From assembly GCA_963794945.1 (NCBI GenBank), contig CAWCFT010000001.1, positions 384,001 to 448,000 on the forward strand: a stretch of 64,000 bases of DNA, read 5' to 3'. The notes beneath the pieces were generated by a model. The model had not been told where the DNA came from, did no database searches, and saw nothing but the letters and a program-made list of their open reading frames with translations. Below, in pieces: positions 2,973 through 58,260 of the stretch (position 1 is the stretch's first letter; each line of letters opens with the position of its first letter). A program made the translations under genes and the position numbers. The stretch comes from Endomicrobiales bacterium (GTDB lineage Bacteria > Elusimicrobiota > Endomicrobiia > Endomicrobiales > CAWCFT01).

Positions 2973-3548
2973 ATGGATAAGAAAACAAATAACATATACA
3001 TAATAGCGGGCTCAAATGGCTCAGGGAAGACCACATTTGCAAAGAGATTTCTTCCAAAATATGCTAAATGTCCTAATTTTATTAATGCCGATCTTATCGC
3101 GCAGGGGTTGTCACCTTTTGAGCCTCAAACGGCGGCCCTGAAAGCTGGAAAAATTGTTTTACAGCAAATTGAAGAATTTTCTGCCCGTGGTTTGGATTTT
3201 GGTTTTGAAACAACTCTCTCTGGTAAATCATATGTAAAGTTGCTTGATGATTTGATTAAGAAGGGATATGAACTGCATTTGTACTATCTCTGGATACCTG
3301 ATACGCGATTGGCGATAGAGCGCATAAAGGGCCGGGTATTAGAAGGCGGGCGCAACATACCTGATATAGATGTTCGTCGGCGCTTTACGCGCAGTATATC
3401 CAATTTCTTCAGGTTATATGAACCTCTATTGAGCACATGGATGATGTTCGATAATTCGGGGCAGGAACCCGAATTAATCGCAAGAGGAAATAATGGACAA
3501 ATTGCGGTGGCAAACAAAGAACTATTTGAAGCTATAAAGGTGAGGTAA
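2973..3548 (+). CDS. Zeta-toxin-like / COG4185-type P-loop protein
   Basis: Walker A IAGSNGSGKTT, plus FINADLIA, FETTLSG and RVLEGGRNIP. Confidence 0.85.
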   Translation: MDKKTNNIYIIAGSNGSGKTTFAKRFLPKYAKCPNFINADLIAQGLSPFEPQTAALKAGKIVLQQIEEFSARGLDFGFETTLSGKSYVKLLDDLIKKGYELHLYYLWIPDTRLAIERIKGRVLEGGRNIPDIDVRRRFTRSISNFFRLYEPLLSTWMMFDNSGQEPELIARGNNGQIAVANKELFEAIKVR

Positions 3549-3877: not shown

Positions 3878-3912
3878 AGCCACATTCGCGCGCCGCGCGG
3901 TGTGGTTTTTTT
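3878..3912 (+). terminator. Putative intrinsic terminator
   Basis: GCCACA...CGCGC/GCGCG...TGTGGT stem followed by a T run. Confidence 0.6.
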
Positions 3913-3947: not shown

Positions 3948-3972
3948 AGTTGTTTACAATTTGTAGACAACT
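3948..3972. promoter_or_regulatory. Near-perfect 25 bp inverted repeat, candidate operator for ParB-like gene #1
   Basis: AGTTGTTTACAA-T-TTGTAGACAACT (one mismatch), ending 33 bp before the ATG at 4006. Confidence 0.5.
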
Positions 3973-4005: not shown

Positions 4006-5655
4006 ATGGCAGATGAAGTACGGATGATCAAGTTAAGCCAAATTGTTGTGCCGGCGCATATGCGCAAGCATAGCCCTGAAAAGACGGCCGAACTGGCTAA
4101 GGATATTAAAGAGCACGGCCAGCTTCAGGATGTAGTTATCACACCTATGGGGGATGGAAATTTTGAGCTTTTGGCTGGCGCCAATCGTTATGAGGCCATG
4201 AAACTAAACGGCGCGGACGAACTCCGGTGCCTGGTCAAAGAGAACGTTTCACCGTACGAAAGGTCATGTATTACCCTGGCAGAGAATCTCAAGCGGGAGG
4301 ACGTCTCCCCTGTAGACCTGGGGTTTGAGCTAGACAGGGCCATGAAAACCGGCAACAAAACCCAGGAAGAGCTGGCAAAAGACCTGGGTGTGACGCAAGG
4401 CTATATAAGCCAATATGTGGTAACTACTGATCTTTCTGAGCCTGTCAGGGAAATTATTAAACGTTTAATAATTGGCATAGGCATCATAAATCAGATAGCC
4501 CGCCTGGCTGGTGACGAGGCCAAAATAGCCATGCTTGAAAGGTGCGAGAAAGAGGGCCTTTCAGTAAAACAGGTTGAAATTTTAGTCAATAAAGCGTTAG
4601 CAGCTTCGCCCAGCCCCGCCGGTCAGGCTGAGGCAGTCAATAAAACTGATGGCGGGACAGACCCAAAGCCCAAAAAGGCAGGCAAGGGCGGAAAGGGCCA
4701 CGCAGGGGATGTCCGCATAGTTAAGACAGGCAAAGTTATATGCCTGCAATACTTCTTCAATGAAGGCACTCCCCCGGATGCCATCGCCAAACCCGTAACA
4801 AACAGGTACCAGCAATGGTTTGATGAGCAAGCCCAGCCAAAACCTGATCTCAAGGCCCAAAAGGCGCAGCTTCGCAAAAGCGAAAAGGAAACCGCTGCTA
4901 AGATAGCCAATGTTCAGAAACTTTTAAAGTTAGCGCAGGACCATGACAAAGGATTGGAAAAGGCAGGCCGTGACAGGACTGCCAGCCTGAAAGAAGTAGA
5001 GGACTTAAAGGCCGAACTTCAAACGTTGAAGTCACAGATCCGCCATGGAGGGGCAAATAGTAAACCCAACAAGCCAACACCGCAAGCCCCTACCCAGGCT
5101 CAAATAATGGAACAAGCTAAGAAGCTCAAAGAAGGCGGCCTGGGCGCAACTGTAGCCCAACTTGAATCTCAAATTGCTCAAGCGAAAAAGAGCCTTGAAG
5201 CTCCCGGCATAACCGACGCGCAAAAGGCCGGGCTAAATATGGCCATTCAAAATCTTCAGTCACAGCTTGATGCGCTAAGGAAAGACAACAATACAAATCC
5301 CAATTTCCAGATCCCAAAACAAAACGATAATAAATCCTCGCCCCTTGCGGGTAAGACTTTGGACCTTGAGGGCCAGACCGAAGGGCCCGAAAAGGAAGAG
5401 GGTAAGGGTGAGGGGGATGTTCTGGCGAACGTTGAAGACCAGAAAAAGAAAATGCTTGACTTGATAAACAGCGGCCGGATGTCACCTGAGGATATGGCAA
5501 ACGTAAAATCGCAGTATGAGGCCGCCATACCCCAAACCCAGCAGGATCTTGCTAAGCCGGAAACTAATGAAGCCAAAGCCGCCTATCTGAAAGCATGGAT
5601 ACAGATGATGCAGGAAGTAATCGAAGCGATCAAAAAAAAGTTGAGTGGGCAGTGA
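4006..5655 (+). CDS. Orphan ParB/RepB/Spo0J-family protein with long low-complexity/coiled-coil tail (#1)
   Basis: LLAGANRYEA (GxxRxxA), ENLKREDVSP, HTH TQEELAKDLGVTQGYISQY, RBS GGAGG. No parA nearby. Confidence 0.85.
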   Translation: MADEVRMIKLSQIVVPAHMRKHSPEKTAELAKDIKEHGQLQDVVITPMGDGNFELLAGANRYEAMKLNGADELRCLVKENVSPYERSCITLAENLKREDVSPVDLGFELDRAMKTGNKTQEELAKDLGVTQGYISQYVVTTDLSEPVREIIKRLIIGIGIINQIARLAGDEAKIAMLERCEKEGLSVKQVEILVNKALAASPSPAGQAEAVNKTDGGTDPKPKKAGKGGKGHAGDVRIVKTGKVICLQYFFNEGTPPDAIAKPVTNRYQQWFDEQAQPKPDLKAQKAQLRKSEKETAAKIANVQKLLKLAQDHDKGLEKAGRDRTASLKEVEDLKAELQTLKSQIRHGGANSKPNKPTPQAPTQAQIMEQAKKLKEGGLGATVAQLESQIAQAKKSLEAPGITDAQKAGLNMAIQNLQSQLDALRKDNNTNPNFQIPKQNDNKSSPLAGKTLDLEGQTEGPEKEEGKGEGDVLANVEDQKKKMLDLINSGRMSPEDMANVKSQYEAAIPQTQQDLAKPETNEAKAAYLKAWIQMMQEVIEAIKKKLSGQ

Positions 5656-5680
5656 GCATAGCAGATTTTTGACTAATGGT

Positions 5681-6661
5681 ATGAATGTTATGCAAAAAAA
5701 AGAATTAAATGATTATTTAAATAACCTTAAAAAAAAGCACAACCTAAAAGAATGTTTTGCTCTAAACGCTGATTGTTCAGAAAATATCATTCAAGCGCAT
5801 TCTATACAAAATAACCGTATTTTAAAAAGAATATCTAAAGATGGTTTAATATTATATTTTGGGAAAGGCGATATTGATCGAGAAAATATGCAACCAAAGC
5901 AATTTGGCCGCAAAACCACATCGACATTTACAGGGTTTTGTGGTTATCATGATCAGAGAATATTTAAGCCAATTGACGACTTCGACTATGAGCAAGGAAA
6001 CGAGGAACAAGAATATTTGTTTTCCTATAAAGCTCTCGCCAAGGAATATCATACGAAGGCTTGTGCATTGTTTGTTGCGAACGAAATACTTGAGAAAAAG
6101 GAACTACCCAATTTCGATTATGAAACATATTATTGGTATATGGTTGGCACAAATAGGTCTTATGATCAGTTGTCGAGAATGCGTATTGCCTTTAATAAGA
6201 ATCTAGAAAGAAAACGATTTTACAAAATATTCACAAAAAGAATAGTTTTTGATGAGGTTTATCCGTTAGCTGTTAGTTCAATGATTTCTTTATCAACTGA
6301 TTTTCAGGGCAATAAAATAAACGATTTAGCGAATATGAAAAAAGATATTTTGCCAATATTTGTGACTATATTCCCTCAGAAAAATAAAACACACATACTT
6401 ATTCAATGCTTAAAAAAGGAAATAAATATATTTAACAAATTATTTAAACAATTTGATCAACCCCTGAATGACTTAAAGCCGAAATTATCTATGTTATTGT
6501 TAACTTACTGTGAAAATATGGCTATCTCTCCATTCCATTGGGACAAACTTTCAAAAAACCAACAAAATTTATTTGTTAGTGGTTTTTTGGAAAGCACTTT
6601 AGATTATACTGAAATTCAAAATTACAAGAAATATGAACAATGTAATTTATTTAACACGTGA
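5681..6661 (+). CDS. AT-rich hypothetical protein with Cys/His motifs (possibly HNH/Zn-binding-like); start uncertain (5645/5681/5690)
   Basis: Long ORF, visibly much more AT-rich than its neighbours. Motifs CFALNADC...AHSIQ and STFTGFCGYHD. Confidence 0.7.
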   Translation: MNVMQKKELNDYLNNLKKKHNLKECFALNADCSENIIQAHSIQNNRILKRISKDGLILYFGKGDIDRENMQPKQFGRKTTSTFTGFCGYHDQRIFKPIDDFDYEQGNEEQEYLFSYKALAKEYHTKACALFVANEILEKKELPNFDYETYYWYMVGTNRSYDQLSRMRIAFNKNLERKRFYKIFTKRIVFDEVYPLAVSSMISLSTDFQGNKINDLANMKKDILPIFVTIFPQKNKTHILIQCLKKEINIFNKLFKQFDQPLNDLKPKLSMLLLTYCENMAISPFHWDKLSKNQQNLFVSGFLESTLDYTEIQNYKKYEQCNLFNT

Positions 6662-26870: not shown

Positions 26871-27845
26871 ATTAATAAAAAATTCTTTGCAGGGCTTGCC
26901 ATCGGCGGCGCGTTCTTATACTTTACCCTCAGGCAGATAGACCTTGCCAACTGCTGGCATTATATACGTCAGGCAAGCATTCCCTGGATATGCCTCGCGG
27001 TTTTCGTATATTTTTTGGCGTTTGTCGCGAGAGGATTTAGGTGGGAGCTGTTGGTCGAACCGTTAAAAAGTGGCGTCCCGGTTAAACGTTTATTCTCACT
27101 TTTGGTCATTGGGTTCTTCATGAACAACGTCCTTCCGCTCAGGTTGGGGGAAGTTGTAAGGGCTAACATAGCGGGACAGAAACTATCCACGACAAGGACA
27201 GGCATTCTTGCAACGATACTCGTTGAAAGGTTGTTTGATGGTATTAGCTACATTACCCTTTTTCTGATAACCATAATGCTTCTGCCGTTCCCGGGCTGGG
27301 CCAAGACTTCTTTCTCGATAGGCTCGGTTGTATTCGTTGGGCTACTCGTGATGCTATATTTCCTTCTAAAACACCGTGAGATAGCCGTAAGGTTTATGGA
27401 CAAGATGCCTGTTCCGGCCAGGTTCAAAGTCGTGGCCCAGAACATGTTCAATAGTTTCATTGACGGCCTTCAGATATTCGCCAAAGGGTCATCGCTTGTA
27501 AAAGTATTCTTTCTCTCAGTTCTGGTGTGGTCTATAGAAGGCAGCGTGTTCTTCCTTATGGGACAGTCTTTCGGTATGCATCTAACTATATTCCAGTGCT
27601 TCTTCGTAATGATCATAATAGGGATGGGCGCTATCCTGCCGACCGCCCCGGGCTTCGTTGGCACAGTGGAATTCCTTGGAGTCACCTCGCTTGCTTTTAT
27701 GGGCTTCAACAAAAATGAGGCTTTCGGCTATATCATAACCCTCCACCTGTTGCAATTGGCAACGGTTTCTTTGCTCGGGATACACAGCCTGGTCACCGAA
27801 AATATAAGTTTTTCAGAGCTTATCAGAATTGAAAAACAGCCTTGA
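26871..27845 (+). CDS. Lysylphosphatidylglycerol-synthase-TM / UPF0104 flippase-like protein (possible ATT start)
   Basis: RGFRW, FMNNVLPLRLGEVVR, VERLFD, PTAPGFVG. GGAGG lies 5 nt before ATT at 26871. Confidence 0.85.
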   Translation: MNKKFFAGLAIGGAFLYFTLRQIDLANCWHYIRQASIPWICLAVFVYFLAFVARGFRWELLVEPLKSGVPVKRLFSLLVIGFFMNNVLPLRLGEVVRANIAGQKLSTTRTGILATILVERLFDGISYITLFLITIMLLPFPGWAKTSFSIGSVVFVGLLVMLYFLLKHREIAVRFMDKMPVPARFKVVAQNMFNSFIDGLQIFAKGSSLVKVFFLSVLVWSIEGSVFFLMGQSFGMHLTIFQCFFVMIIIGMGAILPTAPGFVGTVEFLGVTSLAFMGFNKNEAFGYIITLHLLQLATVSLLGIHSLVTENISFSELIRIEKQP

Positions 27846-27857
27846 TTATGATATAAT
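27829..27857 (+). promoter_or_regulatory. Putative sigma70 promoter (leaderless geometry)
   Basis: TTGAAA-17 bp-TATAAT with TG extension, 7 nt before ATG 27865. Confidence 0.55.
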
Positions 27858-27864
27858 TTTCAAT

Positions 27865-29027
27865 ATGGATAAACCAATTGGGATAGGTATGCTCACTGCG
27901 CGGTTCTATCCCTGCCAGGGCGGCGCAGAGATACAGTGCAGGCTCCTTTCGTCACGTCTTATAACATCCGGTCAGAAAGCAACGATACTCACCCAGAAAC
28001 TACCCAAAACTCACGCTTTTGAGTTGATTGACAACATCCCGGTTTACAGGATGGGCCTTCCGATATCGAACAGGTTAGGCTCATTTTTTTATTTTCTTGC
28101 GTCCATAAAGATGATCATAAAGAAATTCAATGACTTCGACATCCTTCACGCGCACATCGCTTCCACACCTGCAATAATAGCTTCGCTTTTCACTATGTCT
28201 TTCAACAAACCGTCAATAGTGAAATTCGCCGGCAGCCGTAATACAGGGGATATAGCGGTTTCGTTGAGAACTATCCATGGCAGAATGAAGCTCAATTTCA
28301 TAAGGGATAACGCCAGCGCATTCGTTTGCCCAAGTAGCGAGGTTGCAACCGAGCTTGAAAAATTCGGTTTTCAGAAAGAGAAGATATATACAATTCCTAA
28401 CGGTGTCGATACCGATACTTACACCCCGGCAAACTCCTCTGAGAAAAATAACTTAAAAAAGCGTATCGGGTTCCCGCTTGGGTCAAAGACAGTTGTTTAT
28501 TCGGGAAGGCTTGAAAAAGGGAAGGGCCTTGAAACCCTGATAGACGCATGGAGATATATAGAGGAAGTGGGTGTCACGCCGGCACCGCATCTTGCGTTAT
28601 TCGGAGAGGGAAGTTCTGATGAAAGCTTTGAAAGATCAGGCCTCGGGCTTGAAAAATGTGCGGTTCTATGGGTGGAGTGACAATCCGGCTGATTATCTTA
28701 GAGCGTTCTGACATATTTGTCCTGCCTTCTGCCGGTGAGGGGATGCCAAATTCACTTATAGAAGCCATGTCGTGCGGGCTAGCATGTGTTTCAACTAATA
28801 TCGGTGGTGTAAGAGAGCTCATAGTACACGACACAAATGGACTGCTATTTAAGCCAGGCAATACCGCAGCACTTGTTGAATGCCTCAAATCGCTTCTTTC
28901 CGGAGAGACTCTCGCTACAAGACTTTGCTCTTCAGCCAGGGAAACTATCCTTAAGAGCTATACGATCGGCCAAGTAACCGTGCGCTACATGGAACTTTAC
29001 CGTAAAGTTATGGTTAAACCGTCATGA
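27865..29027 (+). CDS. GT4 glycosyltransferase (frameshifted around 28610-28690)
   Basis: GGAE, IPNGVD and SGRL in the first ORF; FVLPSAGEGMPNSLIEAMSCG in ORF 28656-29027. Confidence 0.85.
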
Positions 29028-32259: not shown

Positions 32260-32288
32260 TTGCATGATCTTTACAAAAAAGCTATAAT
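32260..32288 (+). promoter_or_regulatory. Putative sigma70 promoter
   Basis: TTGCAT-17 bp-TATAAT. Confidence 0.5.
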
Positions 32289-32328
32289 ATTTCAGCGAAT
32301 TCACATAAATCCTTTACGGGCATTATTG

Positions 32329-33667
32329 ATGAAAAAATCTTTTCTGGCGGTATTATTTCTAGCCCTGATCTTAAGGCTTACGCTCTTTTTTTTCATACTT
32401 AAAATCGATCCTAATAATTTCTGCCAGTCCGATTCGGGTGTTTACTTACAGATTGCCGACAACCTTCTAAAAACCGGCACTTTTTCAAGTTCCAGTAAGG
32501 CACCCTTTGAACCAGAATATAACAGGACTCCAGCTTACCCTGTTTTCCTTGCGCCTTTCAGGGCGGCCAGCAATCGAGTAAACAGCATAATACTCTTTCA
32601 GGTATTTCTTTCCATTTTGTCAGTTTACCTTGTTATGTATTTCTGCCGTCAGTTACTTCAACTCTCGGTCACCGCAAGCGCCCTCGCGGGATTAGTTCTA
32701 GCCCTAGACGTACCTTCGATAGTCCTTGCCAATTCTGTTCTGACCGAGACGCTTGTTACTTTCCTGCTTTTGTCAGGCGTGATCTTAACGTTTCGCTATT
32801 TCAAAACAGGCAAAACCGTCTTGCTTGTAATTAGCGGTGTGATATACGGGCTCTCAAGCCTCTGCCGGCCCTCCGCTCTCCTTCTCCCGGTCTTCATTCT
32901 GGTTGCGTTGTTTTTCGCTGAAGTTTCGTATTCTCGTAAAGGCATTCTTTCTCTTTGCTTATTCATAATAGCTTATACGGCCGTCCTGTCACCGTGGCTT
33001 ATCCGGAACAAAGCTATTTTCGGCGGGGCATTCCTTTCCACAATAAGCTACGACAATCTTCTTTACGTTCAGGCCGCCGGAGTTAAATCCGTCCACGACA
33101 GAGTATCTCTGGATGAAACCCGCAGATACCTGGTAAAAGATTTCGAATCACGCAATTTAGAAAGCATAAATGCTGGGAACCTTCTGAAGATCAAGAAGCT
33201 TGAGGGGAAAGAAGCTGTTGAAATCATCAAGACTCACCCACTCATTTATGCGTATAATTACTGCCGCTCGGTATTGAACATGCTTCTCAGGCCGATCCGT
33301 AACGATATAGACTTAATGCTGGGTCTCACCCAAACACATTCAACGCTTGAGCTTTGGGATGGAGCAGGACCGGCAGGCATGATAAAAAGCTTTTTTAGTT
33401 CGACATCACGGTTCACCGCTATGGTGTGCCTGTTCCAGATAGCGGCACTCGCGGCTATATATTATTTTGCCATATATGGAGTTTTTGCAGGATATACGCA
33501 AGATTTGTCTCTTACTGCGCTTTTACTTTCATTTATCATATATTTTTGCCTCACGTTCTGGCGCTCCGGAGACATACGCGAGGTTCAGGGTGCCTATAAT
33601 GCCACTGGTATCCGTATTTGCCGGGCTTGGTATCGAAAAATTCAATCACAGGAGAAACGCCGTATGA
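32329..33667 (+). CDS. GT-C (ArnT/GT39-like) membrane protein (frameshift near 33555)
   Basis: DSGVY, RTPAYPVFLA, LTETL, PWLIRN. The true C-terminus (ARFRVPIMP...AV*) is in ORF 33467-33667. Confidence 0.78.
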
Positions 33668-34672
33668 CAAAGATCGGTATAATCGGATGCGGTTACTGGG
33701 GGCCAAACCTCGTAAGGAATTTTATGGAACTGACGAACTGCGAGGTCGCAGCTATATCAGATCTAAACGCCGACAGGCTAAAAAGTATCGGAACGCGTTA
33801 CCCGCAAGTAGCCAGGTTTTCAGATTACAATGATATTTTGAAAAATCCAGAGATAACAGGCGTCGTGATATCGACTAACCTTACAACCCACTACGCTATC
33901 GCGAAAGACGCCTTGAACGCCGGCAAGCACATATTACTTGAAAAACCCGTCGCCTCTACTGTGAGCGAATCAGCCGAGCTTGTTGCGCTCGCAAAAAAGA
34001 AGAAACTTATTTTCATGAGCGGGCACACTTTCCTGTACAATCAGGGAGTGATCGACATGAAGAAATACGTTGAAAAAGGTGACCTCGGTGATGTATTCTA
34101 CCTGCACTCCGAGAGGACTAACCTCGGCCCTATAAGGAACGATACCAACGCTCTTTGGGACCTCGCACCTCACGATATTTCGATCTTTATGCATGTGCTG
34201 GGCCATCTGCCTTGCGCCGTATCGGCTCACGGCCTCTTTCCTTAAAAAAGGCCGCGAGGATGTTGTGTTCCTTACGATGAAGTTTGCGAACGGTGTGCTC
34301 GGAAGCCTGCACGTCTCATGGCTTGACCCTTGCAAGGTCAGAAAGATCACTGTTATCGGCAACAAGAAGATGCTGCTATTCGATGATCTTAACACACTCG
34401 AACCAATAAGGCTTTTTGACAAAGGTGTTGAGTACCCGAAAGATTACGGCAACTACGGCGAGTTCCAGCATATATTAAGGGATGGCGACATTCTCGTCCC
34501 GAAGATCAAACTTAGCGAGCCGCTTAAAAACGAGTGCGCGGCGTTCCTCAAATCCATCGAGACAAGTTCGGCCCCAGTTTCGAACGGCGAGTTCGGCAAG
34601 GATATCGTAAGAGTGCTCGCCGCGGCACAGGAATCACTTAAAAACAACGGCGTTTTCACAGAGGTGAGTTGA
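33664..34672 (+). CDS. Gfo/Idh/MocA oxidoreductase (frameshift near 34235)
   Basis: IGIIGCGYWGPNLVRN, LEKP, WDLAPHD, SWLDPCKVR. Confidence 0.9.
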
Positions 34673-40621: not shown

Positions 40622-42488
40622 ATGAAAATACTGGGGATATCCGCTTACTACCATGACTCAGCCGCTTGCCTGATCGACAACGGCAGTATCACAGCCGCCG
40701 CGCAGGAAGAAAGGTTCACCCGGAAAAAGCACGACCCGTCTTTCCCTGCGAACGCCGTTAAATTCTGTTTGAGTGCGGGCAACGTAACTCTTGCCGGCCT
40801 CGACGCTGTTGTTTTTTACGATAAACCCTGGCTGAAATTCGAGCGCCTCCTTGAAACTTATTACATATTCGCGCCTAAAGGACTAAGCTCGTTTATCCAA
40901 TCCATGCCTGTCTGGGTCAAAGATAAACTCTTCTTAAAAAGCCTTCTGCTTAAAGAACTTTCAGCTATAGACGGCGCCAATAAATATTCAATAAACCTCC
41001 TGTTTTCCGAGCACCACCTTTCACACGCGGCAAGCGCCTTCTACCCGTCACCTTTCGAAGAGGCGGCCATTCTTACAATAGACGGAGTGGGCGAATGGGC
41101 GACGGCCTCCATATCAAGCGGAAAGGGCAACGGCATTACTATGCGTAAAGAGATGAGGTTCCCTCATTCCGTTGGCCTGCTGTATTCGGCCTTCACTTAT
41201 TACCTCGGCTTTAAAGTCAACTTCGGCGAGTACAAGCTTATGGGGCTTTCTCCTTACGGGGATAAATCTTCAGGCAACCCGGATAAATTCGTCAGGCTCA
41301 TAAAAGACAACATCGTCGATATTAAAGAAGACGGCTCTGTATTCCTCAACCAGGACTTCGTCGATTACGCCGCGGGCCTCAAGATGGCCAATGACAAGAA
41401 GTGGGAGAAGCTGTTCGGGTTTCCCAAACGACTGCCGGAATCCGAGATAGGACAGAACCATTGCGACCTTGCCCTGGCTATTCAGAACTGTCAACAATGA
41501 AATGGTTATTAAAATGGGAAAGACCGCGAAAGAGCTTTCCGGTTCTAACAATCTGGTACTTTCGGGAGGCGTGGCGCTTAACTGTGTTTCCAACACTCGC
41601 CTGCTTGAGAGCGGAATGTTCGATAATGTTTGGATCCAACCCGCGGCAGGCGATGCGGGGGGAGCCATCGGTGCCGCTTTAGCCGCTTACCACATCTATT
41701 ACGGCGCAGAAAGAAAACCGGCGGCGGGTAAAACCGACGGCATGAGCGGGGCGTACCTCGGGCCGCAGTTCTCGAACACCGATATAGCGGAGACGGCAAA
41801 TAAATTTGGCGCGATTTTCAACCGTTATGACAATTTTGATAAACTCTGCGATGACGTATCGCTAAAGATATCGAACGGTGAAGTTATAGGATGGTTCCAG
41901 GGAAGAATGGAATGGGGTCCGAGGGCTCTAGGCAACAGGAGCATATTGGGCGACGCCCGCAACTCAGAAATGCAAAAACACATGAACCTTAAGATCAAGT
42001 TCAGGGAAAGCTTTCGTCCCTTCGCGCCATCCGTAAACTCGGAAGACGCGGCTGACTATTTCGATTCGAAAACTCCATCGCCTTACATGCTCCTTGTGGC
42101 GAACGTTAAACAAAATCTTCGAAAGCCCCTTCCTGACGGTTACGACGGGCTTTCAGTAAGGGATAAACTTTACCACAGGCGCTCAGAACTCCCCGCTGTA
42201 ACGCATGTAGATTATTCAGCAAGACTTCAGACTGTCGACAAGTCGACTAACCCGAGATACTGGAACCTTATCAACTCTTTTAAAATACTTACCGGCTGCC
42301 CCGTCATAGTAAACACAAGTTTTAACGTAAGAGGCGAACCTATAGTCTGCACGCCCGAAGACGCTTACAGGTGTTTCATGCGGACGGATATTGATCATCT
42401 TGTTATGGGCGATTACGTGTTTTCTAAGCAAAACCAACCAGAGTGGAAAGAAGGGCGCGGCTGGAAACAGGAGCTTGTTCTTGACTAG
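40622..42488 (+). CDS. NodU/CmcH-family carbamoyltransferase (frameshift near 41490)
   Basis: ISAYYHDSAA, QEERFTRKKHD, EHHLSHAASAF, GGVALNC, GPRALGNRS, FRESFRPFAP, NTSFNVRGEP. Confidence 0.93.
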
Positions 42489-45976: not shown

Positions 45977-47279
45977 ATGCCGGAGATCATAATAATCGGA
46001 GCCGGTCTTACCGGCCTTTCAAGCGCTTACCACCTGAAAAAACCGTTCATTGTGCTGGAAAAGAATAAAACCCCGGGCGGCTTGTGCGGTTCCGTTGCTG
46101 TCAACGGTTTCACTTTCGACTATTCCGGCCATCTTTTGCACCTGCGCGAACCCCGCGTGAAAACACTACTCAGCCGCCTAATGCCTGCCAAGCTGGACAG
46201 TATATACAGAAAAGCTTCGGTATTTACAAACTCCCGCTATGTGCCTTACCCGTTCCAGGCCAATCTTTATTACATGCCCGAAAAGATTCGGAAAGCGTGC
46301 CTCGAAGGATTTTTAAAAAGGGACCTCAAGCACAACTACGGACATAACACGGATTTCTTAAGCTGGTCAAAGTCCTTCTTCGGCGAGGGCATAACCCGCT
46401 ATTTCATGAAACCGTACAACGAGAAGCTATGGACGGTTTCAGGCAAAATACTCACCGCGGACTGGGTTGCGCCGTTCGTGCCGCGGCCGGACACGCGCGA
46501 GATAGTTAACGGCGCCACAAGCGAGCAGAAAAAGGATTTCGGCTACAATGTTTCTTACTATTACCCCGATAAAGGTGGATGCCAGTCAGTAATAAATGCC
46601 TTCTACAATAAACTCGACAACGTCCGACTGGGCATTGCTGCCGGGAAGATAGAACCGAAACAAAAATACATTTTATCTTCGGACGGCAACAAATTCCACT
46701 ATGATCATCTTGTTTCTACACAACCCTTGGTCGAGCTGTTAAATAACATCGTCGGCCTTCCTTCTGACGTCGCGGCGGCTAGCGGAAAGTTTGAGCTGGA
46801 ACACTGTCGAATGCTTTAACCTCGCGTTCAAGTCGCCCCAAACTGGCGAAAAGCCGGCGGGCGGCGCTCATTGGGTATATTTCCCGGAAAAGAAGTATGT
46901 ATTTTACAGGGCGGGTATATACTCCAACATACAGCCTTCTATGGCGCTGAAGGGATATTACTCTATGTACGTAGAGGTAAGCCGAAACCCCAAGGAGACT
47001 TTTAACTCGCGGCAATCTTTAGCGCTGATATTAGACGGCCTCAAGGACGCAGGGATAGTAGAGAAGAACGCTTCGCCGGAGTTTAACCTCAGGCTCACCT
47101 TACCGTACGCTTACGTTATATACGATAGAAAGAAGGACGCCGCGCTGAAAGTTATAAAGGCATATCTCAAGAAAAATGGGATATTTTCAATAGGGCGCTA
47201 CGGCGCCTGGGAATATTCCTTTATGGAACGCTCCATATTAGACGGCATGAGCACCGCTGACCATCTGAACAATAAATGA
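45977..47279 (+). CDS. FAD-dependent oxidoreductase (protoporphyrinogen oxidase / UDP-galactopyranose mutase-like; frameshift near 46790)
   Basis: IIGAGLTGLS, GFTFDYSGH, PYNEKLW, GRYGAWEY. Confidence 0.82.
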
Positions 47280-48437
47280 ACAATATAAAAGTCTGCCACA
47301 TTATAACGATGCTTGAGCTCGGCGGCGCGCAAAGGAACACACTGCACACCGTAAAGAGCCTGGATCGGGAAAAATTCACACCCGTGCTCATCACGGGCCC
47401 AGGCGGCATACTTGACCAAGAAACTTCGGCTTTAACGGACGTTAAAACATATTTCGTTCCGGGTCTCGTGCGCCGGATAAGCCCGGTAAAAGACCTTTTA
47501 AGCATGCTTAGAATATACCGTCTGCTCTGCTTAGAAAAACCGGATGTAGTCCACACTCATTCCTCAAAGGCGGGCATAGTTGGCAGGATGGCCGCGAAGC
47601 TTGCCGGGGTGCCGGTCATCATACACACATACCACGGTTTCGGGTTCAACGATTTCCAGAACTTTGTCACGAGATGGGTCTTTATACTGGCTGAGAAAAT
47701 AACCGCACCTTTGACAACAAAGTTCATCGCGGTCACAACCGAGGACGTCGCCAAGGGCATTAAGTACGGCATAGGGACAACCGCCGATTACACGCTTATC
47801 AGGAGCGGCATTGATATTTCTTCGCCTGCCGCGGACAGCTTCAATAAAACAGATCTAAAAAAAGAGTTCGGCATAGCAGCGGACGAGAACGTTGTAACGA
47901 CAATAGGCCCGTTCAAACCGCAGAAGAACCTTGTGGATTTTGTCAAGGTATGCGCGCTTATCTCCGCGGAACTGCCGAAGACGCGTTTTCTTCTCGCGGG
48001 AGATGGTGAGCAGCGCCAGCTTCTCGAGGCGCTTATCCAGAAGTTCAATCTTTTCGGGCGCTTAACTCTTCTAGGATGGCGCAAAGACGTAAATAAAATA
48101 CTCGCTGTTACAGAACGTGTTTATAATGACATCGCTCTGGGAAGGCCTGCCGCGCTCCATACTTGAGGCCATGAACATGGGCCTGCCGGTAGTGGCCAAC
48201 GCTGTTGACGGCGTCAAGGAGATAGTAAGGGACGGTGTTACCGGTTACCTTATTGAGCCGCGCGACATCAAGGCCCTTGCGAAAAGAACTGTTCAACTGC
48301 TTAAAAACCCTTGCGTTGCAAAAGAAATGGGGATCAAAGGCAAGCAGAACATTGACACCCAGTACGATATTAATTTCATGGTAAGACAGCAGGAAAAACT
48401 ATACGTCGAACTAATGGATAAACATGGGATCAAATAG
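47276..48437 (+). CDS. GT4 glycosyltransferase (frameshift near 48115)
   Basis: LGGAQ, HTHSSKAG, TSLWEGLPRSILEAM. Confidence 0.9.
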
Positions 48438-51606: not shown

Positions 51607-51692
51607 TTTCGAAATTGGTTATTAGAAATTGCCATAAAATTGTAGTTTATATTGAAGTTCTTTCGGATTTCGAAATTGTTGATTAGAAATTG
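51607..51692. repeat. Two 25 bp direct repeats upstream of ParB-like gene #2
   Basis: TTTCGAAATTG-NNN-ATTAGAAATTG at 51607-51631 and 51668-51692. A third copy lies at 53164-53188. Confidence 0.75.
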
Positions 51693-51715
51693 TTGTAAAT
51701 AGTGGGGGTAAAACC

Positions 51716-53110
51716 ATGCCTGACACAGCTCCGGTTATTAAGCTGATACCTGTAAACCGCATCCTTCCGTCCCGCCATCAAGCCCGCAAGAGCTTCAACG
51801 AAGAAAGCCTCAAAAACCTGGCCGCGTCTATCAAAAAAGAAGGGCTGGTAGAGCCTATTATGGTTCGCGTTGTGCCTCCTCCCGAAGGGGTTGCCGCTGA
51901 CCCCGTTAGAGATACATCGGCAGGATTGTCAGGACAGAGTAATGATAAGCAGGACAGTGCTGGTACTTCCGGCCAGCCAAGCGAGGGTGCGGCCGCCCTT
52001 GAGCGGCCTATCTCTAACGGGGCTGGCAGCGAATGGTACGAGATCATATTTGGCGAGCGCCGCTGGCGGGCCTATATGCTTTTGGGCAGGGAAACCATAG
52101 AAGCGATAATAACCACGGTTGCGAGCGAGGCCGCGTCAGCCGCCAAAGGGCTGGTTGAGAACCTTCAACGGGAAGGGATAAACCCCATTGAAGAAGCGGA
52201 GGGCTTTGTCCACTTAAACCAGCTAGACCCGGTCTACTGGACCCAGGGTAATATATCTGAAACAGTAGGCAGAAGCCATGGGTATATTAGCCAATCCCTC
52301 AAAATGCTAAAGTTACCGCAGTCTATAATAGATAATGTTAGGCGCCTAACTATCCACAGGAGCAATGCCCTAGAGCTTTTGCGCCTGCCAAACGAAGGCC
52401 TGCAGGAGACGGCGGCTAACGAGATAGTAGCCAAGGACCTGAACCTTAAAAATACACGGACACTTATTGATAAAATGATTGAAAATCAAGTCAATAGGGC
52501 AAAAACACAGGCTGGTGAACAGGCTGGCGGAGCTACTGCCGGCGCCCACCCCTCAAATGACTTCAGTATCAAAGACTCAGCCGGCGCTATACATATAATA
52601 GGTAGCTTCCAGAAGCCTATCGTCCCTGCCGAGGTTATAAAGGCCCTGGAAGCCACACTCCTGCATTGGCAAGAGATGGACAGCCAGCCAAAGAACCAAA
52701 CCAAACAGCCAAAACACCCCAAATCCCAACAGACGTCCAAGGAGCCAAAAGCCCCTGACCAGGGTGCGCCCATAACCCCTTCGCCGCTTGTGGGTAAGGC
52801 TGAAGCAAATACAGCCGGACAACCTCTAAACATGGACCAGCTCAAAAAGGCATTAGAGTCAGAACAGGGCAACCTCATCAACGGGCAGGCGGGTCAGGCA
52901 GTTCTCGCCGCATTGGAATATCAAAAGAAAGTAACCGAATTAATCAGCCTTCAGCAGGCCCTTAAAGCGGCTGGCAGCGAAGAAGAGAAGATCAGGCTGA
53001 ACGCTGAAATTGAAAAGAAAAAGGCGGAGATAGAAGCTATAAAGAAAGGCCTACAGGCAGGCGGTTCAAACTCGGCCCCGCATGATTTGCCGGACGCTCC
53101 AAAGGCCTGA
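51716..53110 (+). CDS. Orphan ParB/RepB/Spo0J-family protein with in-frame insertion and coiled-coil tail (#2)
   Basis: QARKSF, LAASIKKEGLVEPI, YEIIFGERRWRA, ENLQREGINPIEEA, HTH TQGNISETVGRSHGYISQ. No parA nearby. Confidence 0.88.
   Translation: MPDTAPVIKLIPVNRILPSRHQARKSFNEESLKNLAASIKKEGLVEPIMVRVVPPPEGVAADPVRDTSAGLSGQSNDKQDSAGTSGQPSEGAAALERPISNGAGSEWYEIIFGERRWRAYMLLGRETIEAIITTVASEAASAAKGLVENLQREGINPIEEAEGFVHLNQLDPVYWTQGNISETVGRSHGYISQSLKMLKLPQSIIDNVRRLTIHRSNALELLRLPNEGLQETAANEIVAKDLNLKNTRTLIDKMIENQVNRAKTQAGEQAGGATAGAHPSNDFSIKDSAGAIHIIGSFQKPIVPAEVIKALEATLLHWQEMDSQPKNQTKQPKHPKSQQTSKEPKAPDQGAPITPSPLVGKAEANTAGQPLNMDQLKKALESEQGNLINGQAGQAVLAALEYQKKVTELISLQQALKAAGSEEEKIRLNAEIEKKKAEIEAIKKGLQAGGSNSAPHDLPDAPKA
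51901..52022. mobile_element. MITE-like element inserted in frame in ParB-like gene #2
   Basis: Perfect 14 bp terminal inverted repeats CCCCGTTAGAGATA / TATCTCTAACGGGG. CTG flanks both sides (51897-51899, 52023-52025). Internal GGCCGC/GCGGCC hairpin. Confidence 0.7.
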
Positions 53111-53163
53111 AGTTTTCGGACGGCCAACTGTTTAAATATGAATTTGAAGTACCCTTTAGGGCA

Positions 53164-53188
53164 TTTAGAGATTGCCAATTAGAAATTG
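53164..53188. repeat. Third copy of the 25 bp repeat, downstream of ParB-like #2
   Basis: TTTAGAGATTG-CCA-ATTAGAAATTG. Confidence 0.6.
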
Positions 53189-53302
53189 AATTAATGGGGC
53201 TGCGCCGAGATCGAACCGGCAGCCAAAGTCAAAGATCCGCTAGTTAGGCAAACCACGGAAGAGTATATGCGCACTTGGAAAATATTTTATATATAGGGGT
53301 TG

Positions 53303-54095: not shown

Positions 54096-55065
54096 ATGAA
54101 AGCAATTGTATACACTCAATACGGTTCACCGGATGTTCTGCAGCTTAAAGATGTGGAAAAACCTTCTATTAAAGACAATGAAATACTGGTAAAAATCCAC
54201 GTGGCGTTTGTGAACGCGGCCGACTGGCATCTTTTAAGAGCTGACCCGTTCATAGTACGGCTGTTCGCGGGGCTTTTAAAACCTAAATATAAGATACTGG
54301 GTGCTGATATAGCCGGGCAAGTTGAAGCTGTCGGCAGAAATGTAAAGCGGTTTAAGCCCGGTGACGAAGTATTCGGCAGTATATTCGGTTGCTGGCCTTG
54401 GCGGTTTTGCCGAATACGCGCGCGCCAGCGATGACGCGCTTGTTCTCAAACCAGCCAATATATCTTTTGAGGAAGCGGCGGTGGCGCCTTTGGCGGCAAT
54501 TACCGCTTTGCAGGGCCTTCGCGGCAGGGGGCAAATTCAGCCCGGGCAACAGGTATTGATAAACGGCGCGTCCGGCGGTGTAGGCACGTTCGCGGTTCAG
54601 ATAGCCAAATCGTTCGGGGCAGAAGTAACCGCCGTGTGCAGTACGGGGAATTTGGATATGGCGCGCTCGATAGGCGCTGACCACGTCATTGATTACACTA
54701 AAGAAGATTTCACGAAAAACGGCCAGCGCTATGACCTTATTTTTGCCGCCAACGGATACCATCCCATCTCGGACTATAAGCGAGCGTTAAGCCCCGGAGG
54801 TATATATGTAATGGCCGGAGGGGCCGTAGCTCAAATGTTCCAGGCCGTATTTCTGGGGCCGTTGATGTCGCTTGGCGGAGATAAGAAAATGTTACAACTT
54901 TCGGCGAAATCAAACCAGAAAGACCTAACTTTTATAAAAGAACTCCTTGAAACAGGAAAGATCAAACCCGTTATATACAGGCGTTACCCGTTAAGCGAGG
55001 CCGCCGAAGCTGTCAGGTGCGTTGAACAAGGCCACGCCAAAGGGAAAGTTGTCATAACTATGTAG
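54096..55065 (+). CDS. NAD(P)-dependent MDR-family oxidoreductase (frameshift near 54390)
   Basis: [43 protein letters not shown]. Confidence 0.9.
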
Positions 55066-57055: not shown

Positions 57056-58260
57056 ATGAAGGTTCTTGTTATCAACAGCGGGTCGTCATCGATCAAATAT
57101 ACCTTTTACGACATGGACGGAGAAAAAAGGCTGGCAAACGGTTTGATAGAATGCATTGGCCTGCCTGAAGCTTATTTCAAGCACCAGATAGCTGGCAGCG
57201 AAGAAGTGAAAGAGTCCTGCAAAGCGGCTAACCACCTTGAATCGATAGACATGATACTCAAGAACCTTGTTGGCGGGAAGTCGCCGGTAATTAAGGACCT
57301 TAACGAGATATCAGCGGTAGGCCACAGGGTTGTTCACGGCGGCGACAAGTTTTCGGATTCCGTTCCGGTGAACGATGACGTTATGGCGGGCCTCAGGGAT
57401 TGTTTCGCGATAGCGCCGCTTCACACACCGCACCACTACGCGGGCATCGAGGCTATTTCGAAACTCATTCCCGGCCAGCCGCAGGTCCTTGTTTTTGACA
57501 CATCTTTCCACCAGTCGATACCCGAGCACGCTTACATGTACGCTCTTCCCTATTCCATTTACGAAAAATACCATATACGCCGCTACGGATTTCCACGGCA
57601 CTTCGCACAAATACGTTTCACTGCGCGCGGCGAAGATGCTTGATAAACCGGTAGAGAACCTTAAGCTTATAACATGCCACCTGGGCAACGGGTGCAGTAT
57701 AACGGCAGTGCTGAACGGAAAGTCCATTGACACTTCAATGGGGTTTACTCCGCTTGAAGGTTTGATAATGGGCACAAGGTGCGGCGACATAGACCCGGCC
57801 ATAATAGTTCACCTGATGAACAACGAAAGGATAACAGCTGAGGGTATAAATACCCTTTTAAACAAGAAGAGCGGCCTTTTCGGCATCTCGGGCCTGACCG
57901 GAGACATGAGGACAATATTGAAAGCGGTCTCGAGCGGCTCGGACAAGGCGAAACTCGCGCTCGACATGTACTGCTACAGGATAAAGAAATATATTTGTTC
58001 ATACTTCGGTGTGCTTAACGGTGCGGACGCTGTTGTTTTCACGGCAGGCGTTGGAGAGAACTCGCCCACAATACGCGAGAAATCCTGCCAGGACCTTGAC
58101 AGCCTCGGGGTTAAGCTGGATGCCGCTTCTAATAATCAGTCCGCATCAGGAGAGAGGGTAATATCATCGTCTCGATTCTAGAGTGAAAGTGCTCGTTATA
58201 CCTACCAATGAGGAGCTTATGATAGCACGCGAGACAGTAAGGGTATTGACAAATTCATAA
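57056..58260 (+). CDS. ackA: Acetate kinase (frameshifts near 57592 and 58175)
   Basis: [55 protein letters not shown]. Confidence 0.95.

Follow-up and report, generated by a model that had tools for sequence, protein, structure and literature searches.

KorB, a ParB-family protein of the IncP plasmid RK2, binds many palindromic OB operators and acts on transcription; it has one specificity, its sites lie at promoters and KorA is its partner. In Bacillus subtilis, the parS-359 site is located in the linker that follows the DNA-binding domain. This site lies within the parB/spo0J gene itself (PMC4442127). SCP2 ParT, as found by chromatin immunoprecipitation sequencing (ChIP-seq) and biolayer interferometry, binds an 18-bp inverted repeat inside parT; it gives a 5-kb ChIP-seq peak wherever the gene is placed and diffuses from the site without cytidine triphosphate (CTP) (PMC12260392). 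ParB1 and ParB2 of SCP1 from Streptomyces coelicolor each have, and by the same two techniques were found to bind, an internal parS in their own gene, with two more identical copies nearby (bioRxiv 10.64898/2025.12.10.693275). Jalal et al. 2020 (PMC7383237) define specificity residues at positions 173, 179, 184 and 201, with the combination RTAG in ParB and QKKR in Noc; at base 1 of the half-site an Arg at 173 is tied to G and a Gln to A, and at base 6 a Gly at 201 is tied to A and an Arg to C. Orphan ParB-fold proteins are widespread (PMC12704722). The present analysis concerns two orphan genes, ParB-like #1 and ParB-like #2, each of which carries a palindrome within its own coding sequence, in a 64,000-nucleotide stretch of DNA (the window, C1:384001-448000) of a 2.9-Mb, 19-contig metagenome-assembled genome (MAG) from the Endomicrobiales (G000), which is 86% complete with 5.9% contamination.

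Palindromes inside two ParB-like genes

Each of the two ParB-like proteins probably has its cognate parS-type site in the palindrome of its own gene, as judged from comparison of the genes with their homologues. The features on which this reading turns are the following.

4006 to 5655, forward strand: ParB-like #1, 549 amino acids (aa), clade P1; ParB_N, HTH_ParB and a coiled-coil/low-complexity tail of about 340 aa
4396 to 4398, forward strand: codon Gln131 of ParB-like #1, equivalent to specificity residue 173; paired with A at half-site base 1
4452 to 4473, no strand: in-gene palindrome 1, arms AATTATTAAAC and GTTTAATAATT, 11/11 pairs; codes for (E)IIKRLII; predicted own docking site of ParB-like #1
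4480 to 4482, forward strand: codon Gly159 of ParB-like #1, equivalent to specificity residue 201; paired with A at half-site base 6
51716 to 53110, forward strand: ParB-like #2, 464 aa, clade P2; ParB_N with a 45-aa insert, HTH_ParB and a tail of about 200 aa
52277 to 52279, forward strand: codon His188 of ParB-like #2, equivalent to residue 173; paired with G at base 1, like the other two His-bearing members counted
52337 to 52350, no strand: in-gene palindrome 2, arms GTTAGGC and GCCTAAC; codes for VRRLT; predicted own docking site of ParB-like #2
52361 to 52363, forward strand: codon Ser216 of ParB-like #2, equivalent to residue 201; Ser has no single partner base across the family

Both proteins match ParB_N (PF02195, cut-off 26.3 bits) and HTH_ParB (PF17762, cut-off 22.6 bits) in Pfam, #1 at 38.0 and 43.5 bits and #2 at 71.6 and 57.2 bits. 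The two palindromes reported in an earlier note on this DNA were recovered: AATTATTAAACGTTTAATAATT at 4452-4473 is a perfect 22-bp palindrome inside the open reading frame (ORF) 4006-5655, and GTTAGGCGCCTAAC at 52337-52350 is a perfect 14-bp palindrome inside the ORF 51716-53110. As that note also observed, the centre of each lies at the C and G of an arginine codon 17 residues past GYISQ; it separates the first and second bases of CGT (Arg153) in #1 and of CGC (Arg210) in #2. Its comparison of the two central 16-mers is correct as to three A/G differences paired with T/C differences, but the outermost pair of the second 16-mer is non-complementary. A scan of G000 with both 16-mers gave no second copy at up to 2 mismatches over both arms; the closest sequences elsewhere differ at 2 positions and lack the palindromic symmetry.

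The 22-mer of #1 is the longest perfect even palindrome of the window and one of 27 with arms of at least 10 in the 2.9-Mb assembly. Seven of these 27 lie inside ParB-like genes, five in an intergenic hub described below, and one is an extragenic variant. The 14-mer of #2, with its seven perfect pairs (8/11 within the 22-mer), is unremarkable by itself, being one of eight with arm 7 in the window. Its weight is its position, for the same aligned codon is symmetric in 33/33 family genes examined.

Symmetry and specificity residues across the family

Homologous DNA was gathered from G003 and G004, which represent two further families of the order, from the Elusimicrobiota family f26 and from metagenome contigs, and the whole G000 assembly was searched for paralogues with tblastn and Pfam. 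G000 has one canonical ParB (C3, 289 aa, with LGRGL) beside 11 atypical paralogues, namely three P1 genes (including #1), five P2 genes (including #2) and three genes of a group P3. The 33 P1 and P2 genes derive from nine Elusimicrobiota genomes (G000, G003, G004, five f26 genomes and one f31-adjacent genome) and three metagenome contigs. Such genes are rare: of 401 sampled Elusimicrobiota genomes, 5 have P1-like and 8 have P2-like genes, and a profile search of the genome contigs with the P1 alignment gave 13 loci, which were only the four genes of G004 and canonical ParBs.

At the aligned codon, 8-11 of 11 pairs are symmetric in every one of the 33 genes, which together present 30 distinct 22-mers; 13 are perfect over 22 bp and some extend to 28 and 30 bp. 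Pairs 2-8 from the centre contain 2 mismatches in 210, delimiting a 16-bp core as in parS, and the outer pairs decay. When codons for an unchanged amino-acid sequence were drawn anew according to window usage (20,000 synonymous recodings of each gene), the probability of symmetry equal to or above that observed was 1e-4 to 0.02 for 32 genes and 0.07 for #2 (11 pairs). None of the other same-phase positions, 218-279 per gene, attains the observed symmetry. Homologues thus have the excess over synonymous shuffles that the earlier note had proposed as a test, and selection acts on the DNA, the symmetry not being a protein by-product. The shuffles themselves average 4.2-8.3 of 11 symmetric pairs against a random expectation of 2.75; therefore the peptide (I-x-x-R-x-x-I and variants) is shaped by the palindrome.

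Residue equivalence was established by aligning the family profile via PDB to B. subtilis Noc, with spacing +6, +5 and +17; the profile matches Noc, Spo0J and ParB structures at E values of 1e-45 to 1e-60. The codons for 173, 179, 184 and 201 are at -22, -16, -11 and +6 codons from the palindrome centre, and since they occupy both flanks the palindrome lies between the codons of its own predicted readers. The specificity quartets are Q-Y-D-G in #1 and H-S-K-S in #2. Over 34 genes, each residue found at 173 goes with a single base 1, as follows.

Residue 173 is R: base 1 is G in 14/14
Residue 173 is Q: base 1 is A in 9/9
Residue 173 is P: base 1 is T in 5/5
Residue 173 is H: base 1 is G in 3/3
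Residue 173 is D, K or S: base 1 is T, T or C, respectively, in one gene each

Label permutation gave p<=1e-5 for this association (n=34), and the Q-A pairing is found in P1, in P2 and in a Noc-like gene. At 201 the pairings with base 6 are G-A in 6/6, R-C in 2/2 and A-T in 4/6; in ParB-like #2, H188 and S216 stand with G and G. The L001 and L041 genes (Gly; TATTAAAC, ..AAAC) and the L040 gene (Arg; TATTAACC, ..AACC) have sites whose sole difference is base 6, and this contrast is a natural counterpart of the published G201R switch. In an IQ-TREE tree, in which P1 and P2 are each supported 100/100, residue and base have switched jointly in four sister pairs (L032/L043, L041/L042, L001/L031 and L145/L149). 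The co-variation of site and helix-turn-helix (HTH) that the earlier note had postulated is thus evident, half-site bases tracking residues 173 and 201 in a manner consistent with binding.

Related sites are also seen beyond P1 and P2. Among 80 other ParB-family rows (canonical ParBs, 25-37% identity), three have a site at the aligned codon, one being ATTTCCCGGGAAAT and two TGTTTCACGTGGAACA. The canonical ParBs carry a V/I-S-x-G-x-L/I-S motif at the place of the palindrome, and parS translated in this frame gives V-S-R-G-T. In one Bacillota order, the Noc orthologues (L159-L162 in G401-G404; 67-100% identical; QK(K/R)R-type) have ATTTCCCGGGAAAT in their own gene at the same codon in 4/4 cases. 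At the same codon TGTTTCACGTGGAACA is found in canonical-type ParB genes with R173 and G201 at the metagenome loci L104 (~1426) and L074 (~1829), where the stretch encodes NVSRGTLS or YVSRGTIS. In one Bacillota ParB gene, the parS-like site is some 60 codons beyond the recognition helix rather than at the P1/P2 codon. ParB-like #1 and #2 lack the Noc residues QK(K/R)R and the Noc-binding site (NBS), their sites differing from ATTTCCCGGGAAAT, and neither has an N-terminal extension ahead of its ParB_N domain.

Protein architecture, extragenic copies and surroundings

The CTP-binding boxes I-III of #2 are canonical (GERRWRA, ENLQRE), and most P2 proteins keep them (GERRWRA or GERRLRA, ENLQRE, SRHQARK). 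In P1 proteins box II is degenerate (G-x-x-R) and box I is shortened; #1 has GANRYEA as its box II, ENLKRE and a shortened box I. The CTP-dependent clamp envisaged in the earlier note is a fair expectation for #2, with its intact boxes, but not for #1 with a box II of this kind. The designation of the genes as orphans holds: no ParA-type ATPase lies beside #1 or #2 or among the 61 window ORFs scanned, no neighbour genes common to the paralogues were found, and the ParA-contact peptide LG(R/K)GL, present in the canonical ParB on C3, is absent from P1 and P2. PF23552, for C-terminal ParB dimerisation, matches the canonical ParB of G003 and no P1 or P2 protein; a short G-x-[IV]-x-I motif after the linker resembles that dimerisation domain. 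One P1 paralogue has a weak Pfam match to KorB (E 2.8e-4, below cut-off).

All paralogues have long coiled-coil/low-complexity tails, those of #1 and #2 being encoded at 4621-5652 and 52502-53107. Four C-terminal tail modules are each common to paralogues of different DNA-binding clades (G000 C1, C2, C4, C9 and C16), and terminal modules are shuffled among P1, P2 and P3; the last ~75 residues of #1 are common to a P2 gene on C4. Homologous stretches that consist of tail only occur at C15:89644-90354, C6:1151-1363 and C6:116285-116470. P3 is a distant ParB_N-like group, with a PF02195 score of 22.7 bits, below cut-off (C2:77284-78714, C2:123696-125375 and C16:74930-76039; L154, L155 and L037). 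Both C2 members of P3 contain a palindrome with the arms GCTCGGCACG and CGTGCCGAGC about 36 residues after the recognition helix and centred between codons, a place unlike that in P1 and P2, and an intergenic variant with one change per arm is at C4:128157.

With up to 3 mismatches allowed, the in-gene P1 and P2 20-mers of G000 have no other copy in the genome except in two cases: the C2 and C8 paralogues have sites 2/20 bases apart, and the site of the paralogue at C1:22816-23988 has an exact second copy at C12:26244 (20/20). Elsewhere, exact extragenic copies occur in G004 (C146:915 and C280:2190, 22/22 each) and in G366 (C320:5993, 18/18), and in family f26 second copies are single sites within unrelated genes. 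In G003, which is 97% complete, a search with the P1 pattern found the three P1 sites only inside their genes. The earlier description of the genes as self-contained therefore stands as regards their solitary, ParA-less state, but exact second copies of several in-gene sites exist outside the genes, partly in intergenic arrays.

The C12:26244 copy opens a 0.5-kb intergenic hub (C12:26240-26740; L039, 2240-2740) in which at least eight different near-perfect palindromes of 20-26 bp, of both P1 and P2 type, occupy 417 bp. This is the only cluster in the assembly with at least three such palindromes per 600 bp (179 palindromes in total). Three composite units of the hub share the spacer GTTGGGCACTAC, which also recurs in units of G004. 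Similar arrays are present on three small contigs of G004 (L122 826-935, L123 2083-2350 and L124 1970-2520); they include exact copies (22/22 in each case) of two sites that G004 paralogues carry in their genes, a copy of a third such site with a single mismatch, and a perfect 20-bp version of the site of ParB-like #2. That the hub is a set of gene fragments was ruled out, as similarity to genes stops at the palindrome. A sigma-54 promoter or a repetitive extragenic palindrome (REP) or bacterial interspersed mosaic element was likewise dropped as a reading of the spacer, the -12 GC being absent and each palindrome unique. dnaA is on contigs C18 and C16 and the hub on C12. The only near-canonical parS of the assembly (TGTTTCATGTGAAACA) is 12 kb from dnaA (C18:67991 and C18:80324), and a second DnaA-family gene is on C16 (C16:58707).

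A further gene adjoins ParB-like #1.

5645 to 6661, forward strand: 338-aa ORF; its start and the stop of ParB-like #1 overlap

Because of this overlap the ORF is probably co-transcribed with #1; it has no match in a Pfam search and no paralogue in the G000 genome. The putative promoter of #1 contains an imperfect inverted repeat (GTTGTTTACAA/TTTGTAGACAAC, 3949-3971). Ahead of it, at 3881-3912, is a GC-rich hairpin with a T-run that looks like the terminator of the upstream gene, and a Zeta_toxin/AAA_33-like small kinase gene lies just upstream of #1 at 2973-3548. Directly upstream of #2 are two copies of GAAATTG-N3-ATTAGAAATTG (51611-51646 and 51672-51707), with a related motif downstream (53160-53200); the two-part pattern is unique to this place in the genome. 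orf212, which adjoins #2, has no paralogues in G000. A shared operator or promoter motif was looked for around the paralogues and none was found. A recurrent hairpin repeat, CCCCTCTT-N7-9-AAGAGGGG, is upstream of the paralogues C1:76424, C9:65886 and C2:123759 and also at C4:421290-421390; it may be a genome-wide REP-like element or a terminator.

The setting of the window is chromosomal, with recG, type IV pilus genes, a large glycosylation cluster, icd, ndk, ack and fab genes. Six window genes are each broken into two overlapping ORFs (27829-29027, 32260-34672, 40622-42488, 47276-48437, 54096-55065 and 57056-58181), namely two GT4 glycosyltransferases, a GFO/MocA fusion, a carbamoyltransferase, a zinc alcohol dehydrogenase and an acetate kinase; these are either assembly indels or real frameshifts. 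Frameshifts are also present in two ParB-like paralogues outside the window (C8 and C1:22816).

Explanations and comparison with known systems

If each palindrome is the site of the protein that it helps to encode, the HTH domains of a protein dimer would read the two 8-bp half-sites. Since the site lies between the reader codons, reader and site would form one block of ~90 bp that could be duplicated, transferred and diversified as a unit. ParB-like #2, with intact CTP boxes, would load at its own site as a CTP-dependent clamp and spread over its own locus, and ParB-like #1, whose box II is degenerate, may not need CTP for binding or diffusion, in the manner of SCP2 ParT. The likeliest outcome would be a nucleoprotein complex on the protein's own gene, leading to negative feedback. 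Such a complex would place the long modular tail at its own locus and also, in those genomes that have the site a second time, at that further copy, with no ParA involved.

Several points weigh against this reading. The genes of the window come from a MAG of the completeness and contamination given above, with many split genes, and the site of #2 is short (14 bp perfect; 8/11). The central pair is non-complementary in 7/30 distinct sites (six C with A and one G with G). The covariation statistic ignores shared ancestry, and Ser, Thr and Asn at 201 are without a single partner base. The degenerate boxes I and II of P1 proteins, #1 among them, make clamp behaviour doubtful. In G000 only one of the at least eight hub palindromes equals a resident in-gene site; the 14% of the genome that is missing may have a bearing on this, or the hub may have a different role. 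Finally, the equivalence of the ParT codon rests on a manual motif alignment, and hhalign of ParT to the family left the HTH unaligned (probability 0.4).

Chance or protein-level constraint alone as the source of the symmetry is next to impossible. It could appeal to the 14-bp palindrome of #2, one of eight of its size in the window, but 13/27 of the longest perfect palindromes of G000 belong to the system of ParB-like genes and hub, and the homologue survey (recoding, covariation, 16-bp core) refutes it. A hairpin in mRNA or single-stranded DNA of the coding region, serving as a processing, stability or pausing signal, is highly improbable. Site 1 does fold as RNA, at -12.5 kcal/mol (z = -3.5), and coding-region mRNA structure at the 5' end of Caulobacter parB controls the level of ParB (PMC13371061). 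Site 2, however, folds no better than shuffles (z = +0.49; 133/200 shuffles as good), and the predicted loop bases are self-complementary in 22/30 sites (ACGT 8, CCGG 6, TCGA 5, GCGC 2, GGCC 1), which a hairpin leaves unexplained. There is no excess of G:U-compatible mismatches, 3 being G:T and 30 of other types. The same palindromes recur in non-coding arrays and unrelated genes, and the half-site tracks protein residues by a code that was set for duplex DNA.

The remaining alternatives accept protein binding and relocate either the reader or the functional site. Reading of the sites in trans, by another paralogue or by the canonical ParB in a cross-regulatory network, is very unlikely. The coexistence of 11 atypical paralogues with one canonical ParB in G000, the near-identity of the C2 and C8 sites, and the AATT(A/G)T...A(T/C)AATT frame that P1 sites share with a site upstream of canonical parAB in G003 would all suit it. 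Yet bases 1 and 6 follow the residues of the containing gene, in 31/31 multi-member cases for 173, a pattern not expected from a trans reader, and the identical L001 and L041 sites go with identical TQGYISQY helices in different genomes. It is also quite unlikely that the extragenic copies are the functional ones and that the in-gene copy persists only as a passenger, at little coding cost in a parS-like helix. The palindrome-compatible peptide, as seen in the averages of the shuffles, the closeness of the canonical ParB motif to the parS-encoded V-S-R-G-T, and the existence of exact extragenic copies point that way; against it stand the three P1 sites of G003, confined to their genes, and 7/8 P1/P2 sites of G000 without another copy within 3 mismatches, the C2/C8 pair aside. 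Moreover, perfect symmetry of 22-30 bp is kept while the sequence diversifies, which requires selection on the in-gene copy itself.

The reading of each palindrome as its own protein's site has a wider, more tentative extension, which on present evidence is unlikely. About eleven ParA-less ParBs with private in-gene sites, a hub and four tail modules, each shared by at least two paralogues, could form a chromosome-addressing network in which contacts between tails or between clamps tie chosen loci together or to the hub in programmable folding or anchoring, and the site of uncharacterised ParB-family proteins could often be readable at their own codon 195. Sites at codon 195 have been seen in the Elusimicrobiota genes, in the Noc genes of a single Bacillota order and in two ParBs of canonical type, and ParT probably has one as well. 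Were the rule to hold, orphan ParB targets would be predictable from their own gene, and specificity from two residues. With its 30 natural reader-site pairs, the family carries the ParB/Noc specificity-evolution experiment further, H-G, P-T and A-T being new, and would be a ready source of orthogonal ParB/parS pairs such as serve in multicolour locus tagging (PMC11109969, PMC11798528).

The earlier note knew of no description of such a system, a claim that cannot be kept, since a parS inside its own parB gene is an already published idea (B. subtilis parS-359, SCP2 ParT, SCP1 ParB1/ParB2). A literature search that covered few subscription journals found no paper on a fixed codon, the 173/201 link, ParA-less paralogue expansions or multi-specificity arrays, and no counterpart of the hub. 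The single specificity, promoter sites and KorA partner of KorB were not seen for the genes studied here. With parS-359 they share a parS within the gene of its binding protein, but parS-359 is part of a canonical ParABS centromere with its other copies near oriC. SCP2 ParT is likewise a ParB-like protein with a single inverted repeat in its own coding sequence, but has a ParA partner and lacks the CTPase fold (PMC12260392). In the record AL645771, SCP2.04c has a single perfect 18-bp inverted repeat, which closely follows the HTH and is centred between codon bases 1 and 2; a Pfam search of ParT gave no match. The SCP1 pairs ParB1/parS1 and ParB2/parS2 are similar in being paralogues with distinct inverted repeats of their own, in-gene and extragenic copies and divergent CTP pockets, and different in lying in parAB operons on a plasmid, in having a partition role and in numbering two rather than eleven; the accessible text of bioRxiv 10.64898/2025.12.10.693275 states neither a fixed codon position nor a link to specificity residues for the SCP1 sites. 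Likewise, the accessible text of PMC12704722 gives no DNA targets for orphan ParBs, and the word 'palindrom' is absent from it. The ParB/Noc code (PMC7383237), in which 173 and 201 read bases 1 and 6, holds here for R-G, Q-A, G-A and R-C, but covers two specificities (parS and NBS), as against the 30 in-gene sites and the additional H-G, P-T and A-T pairs of this family. What is new here is the ParA-less expansion of paralogues into private specificities, the fixed codon between the reader codons, the hub and the shuffling of tails.

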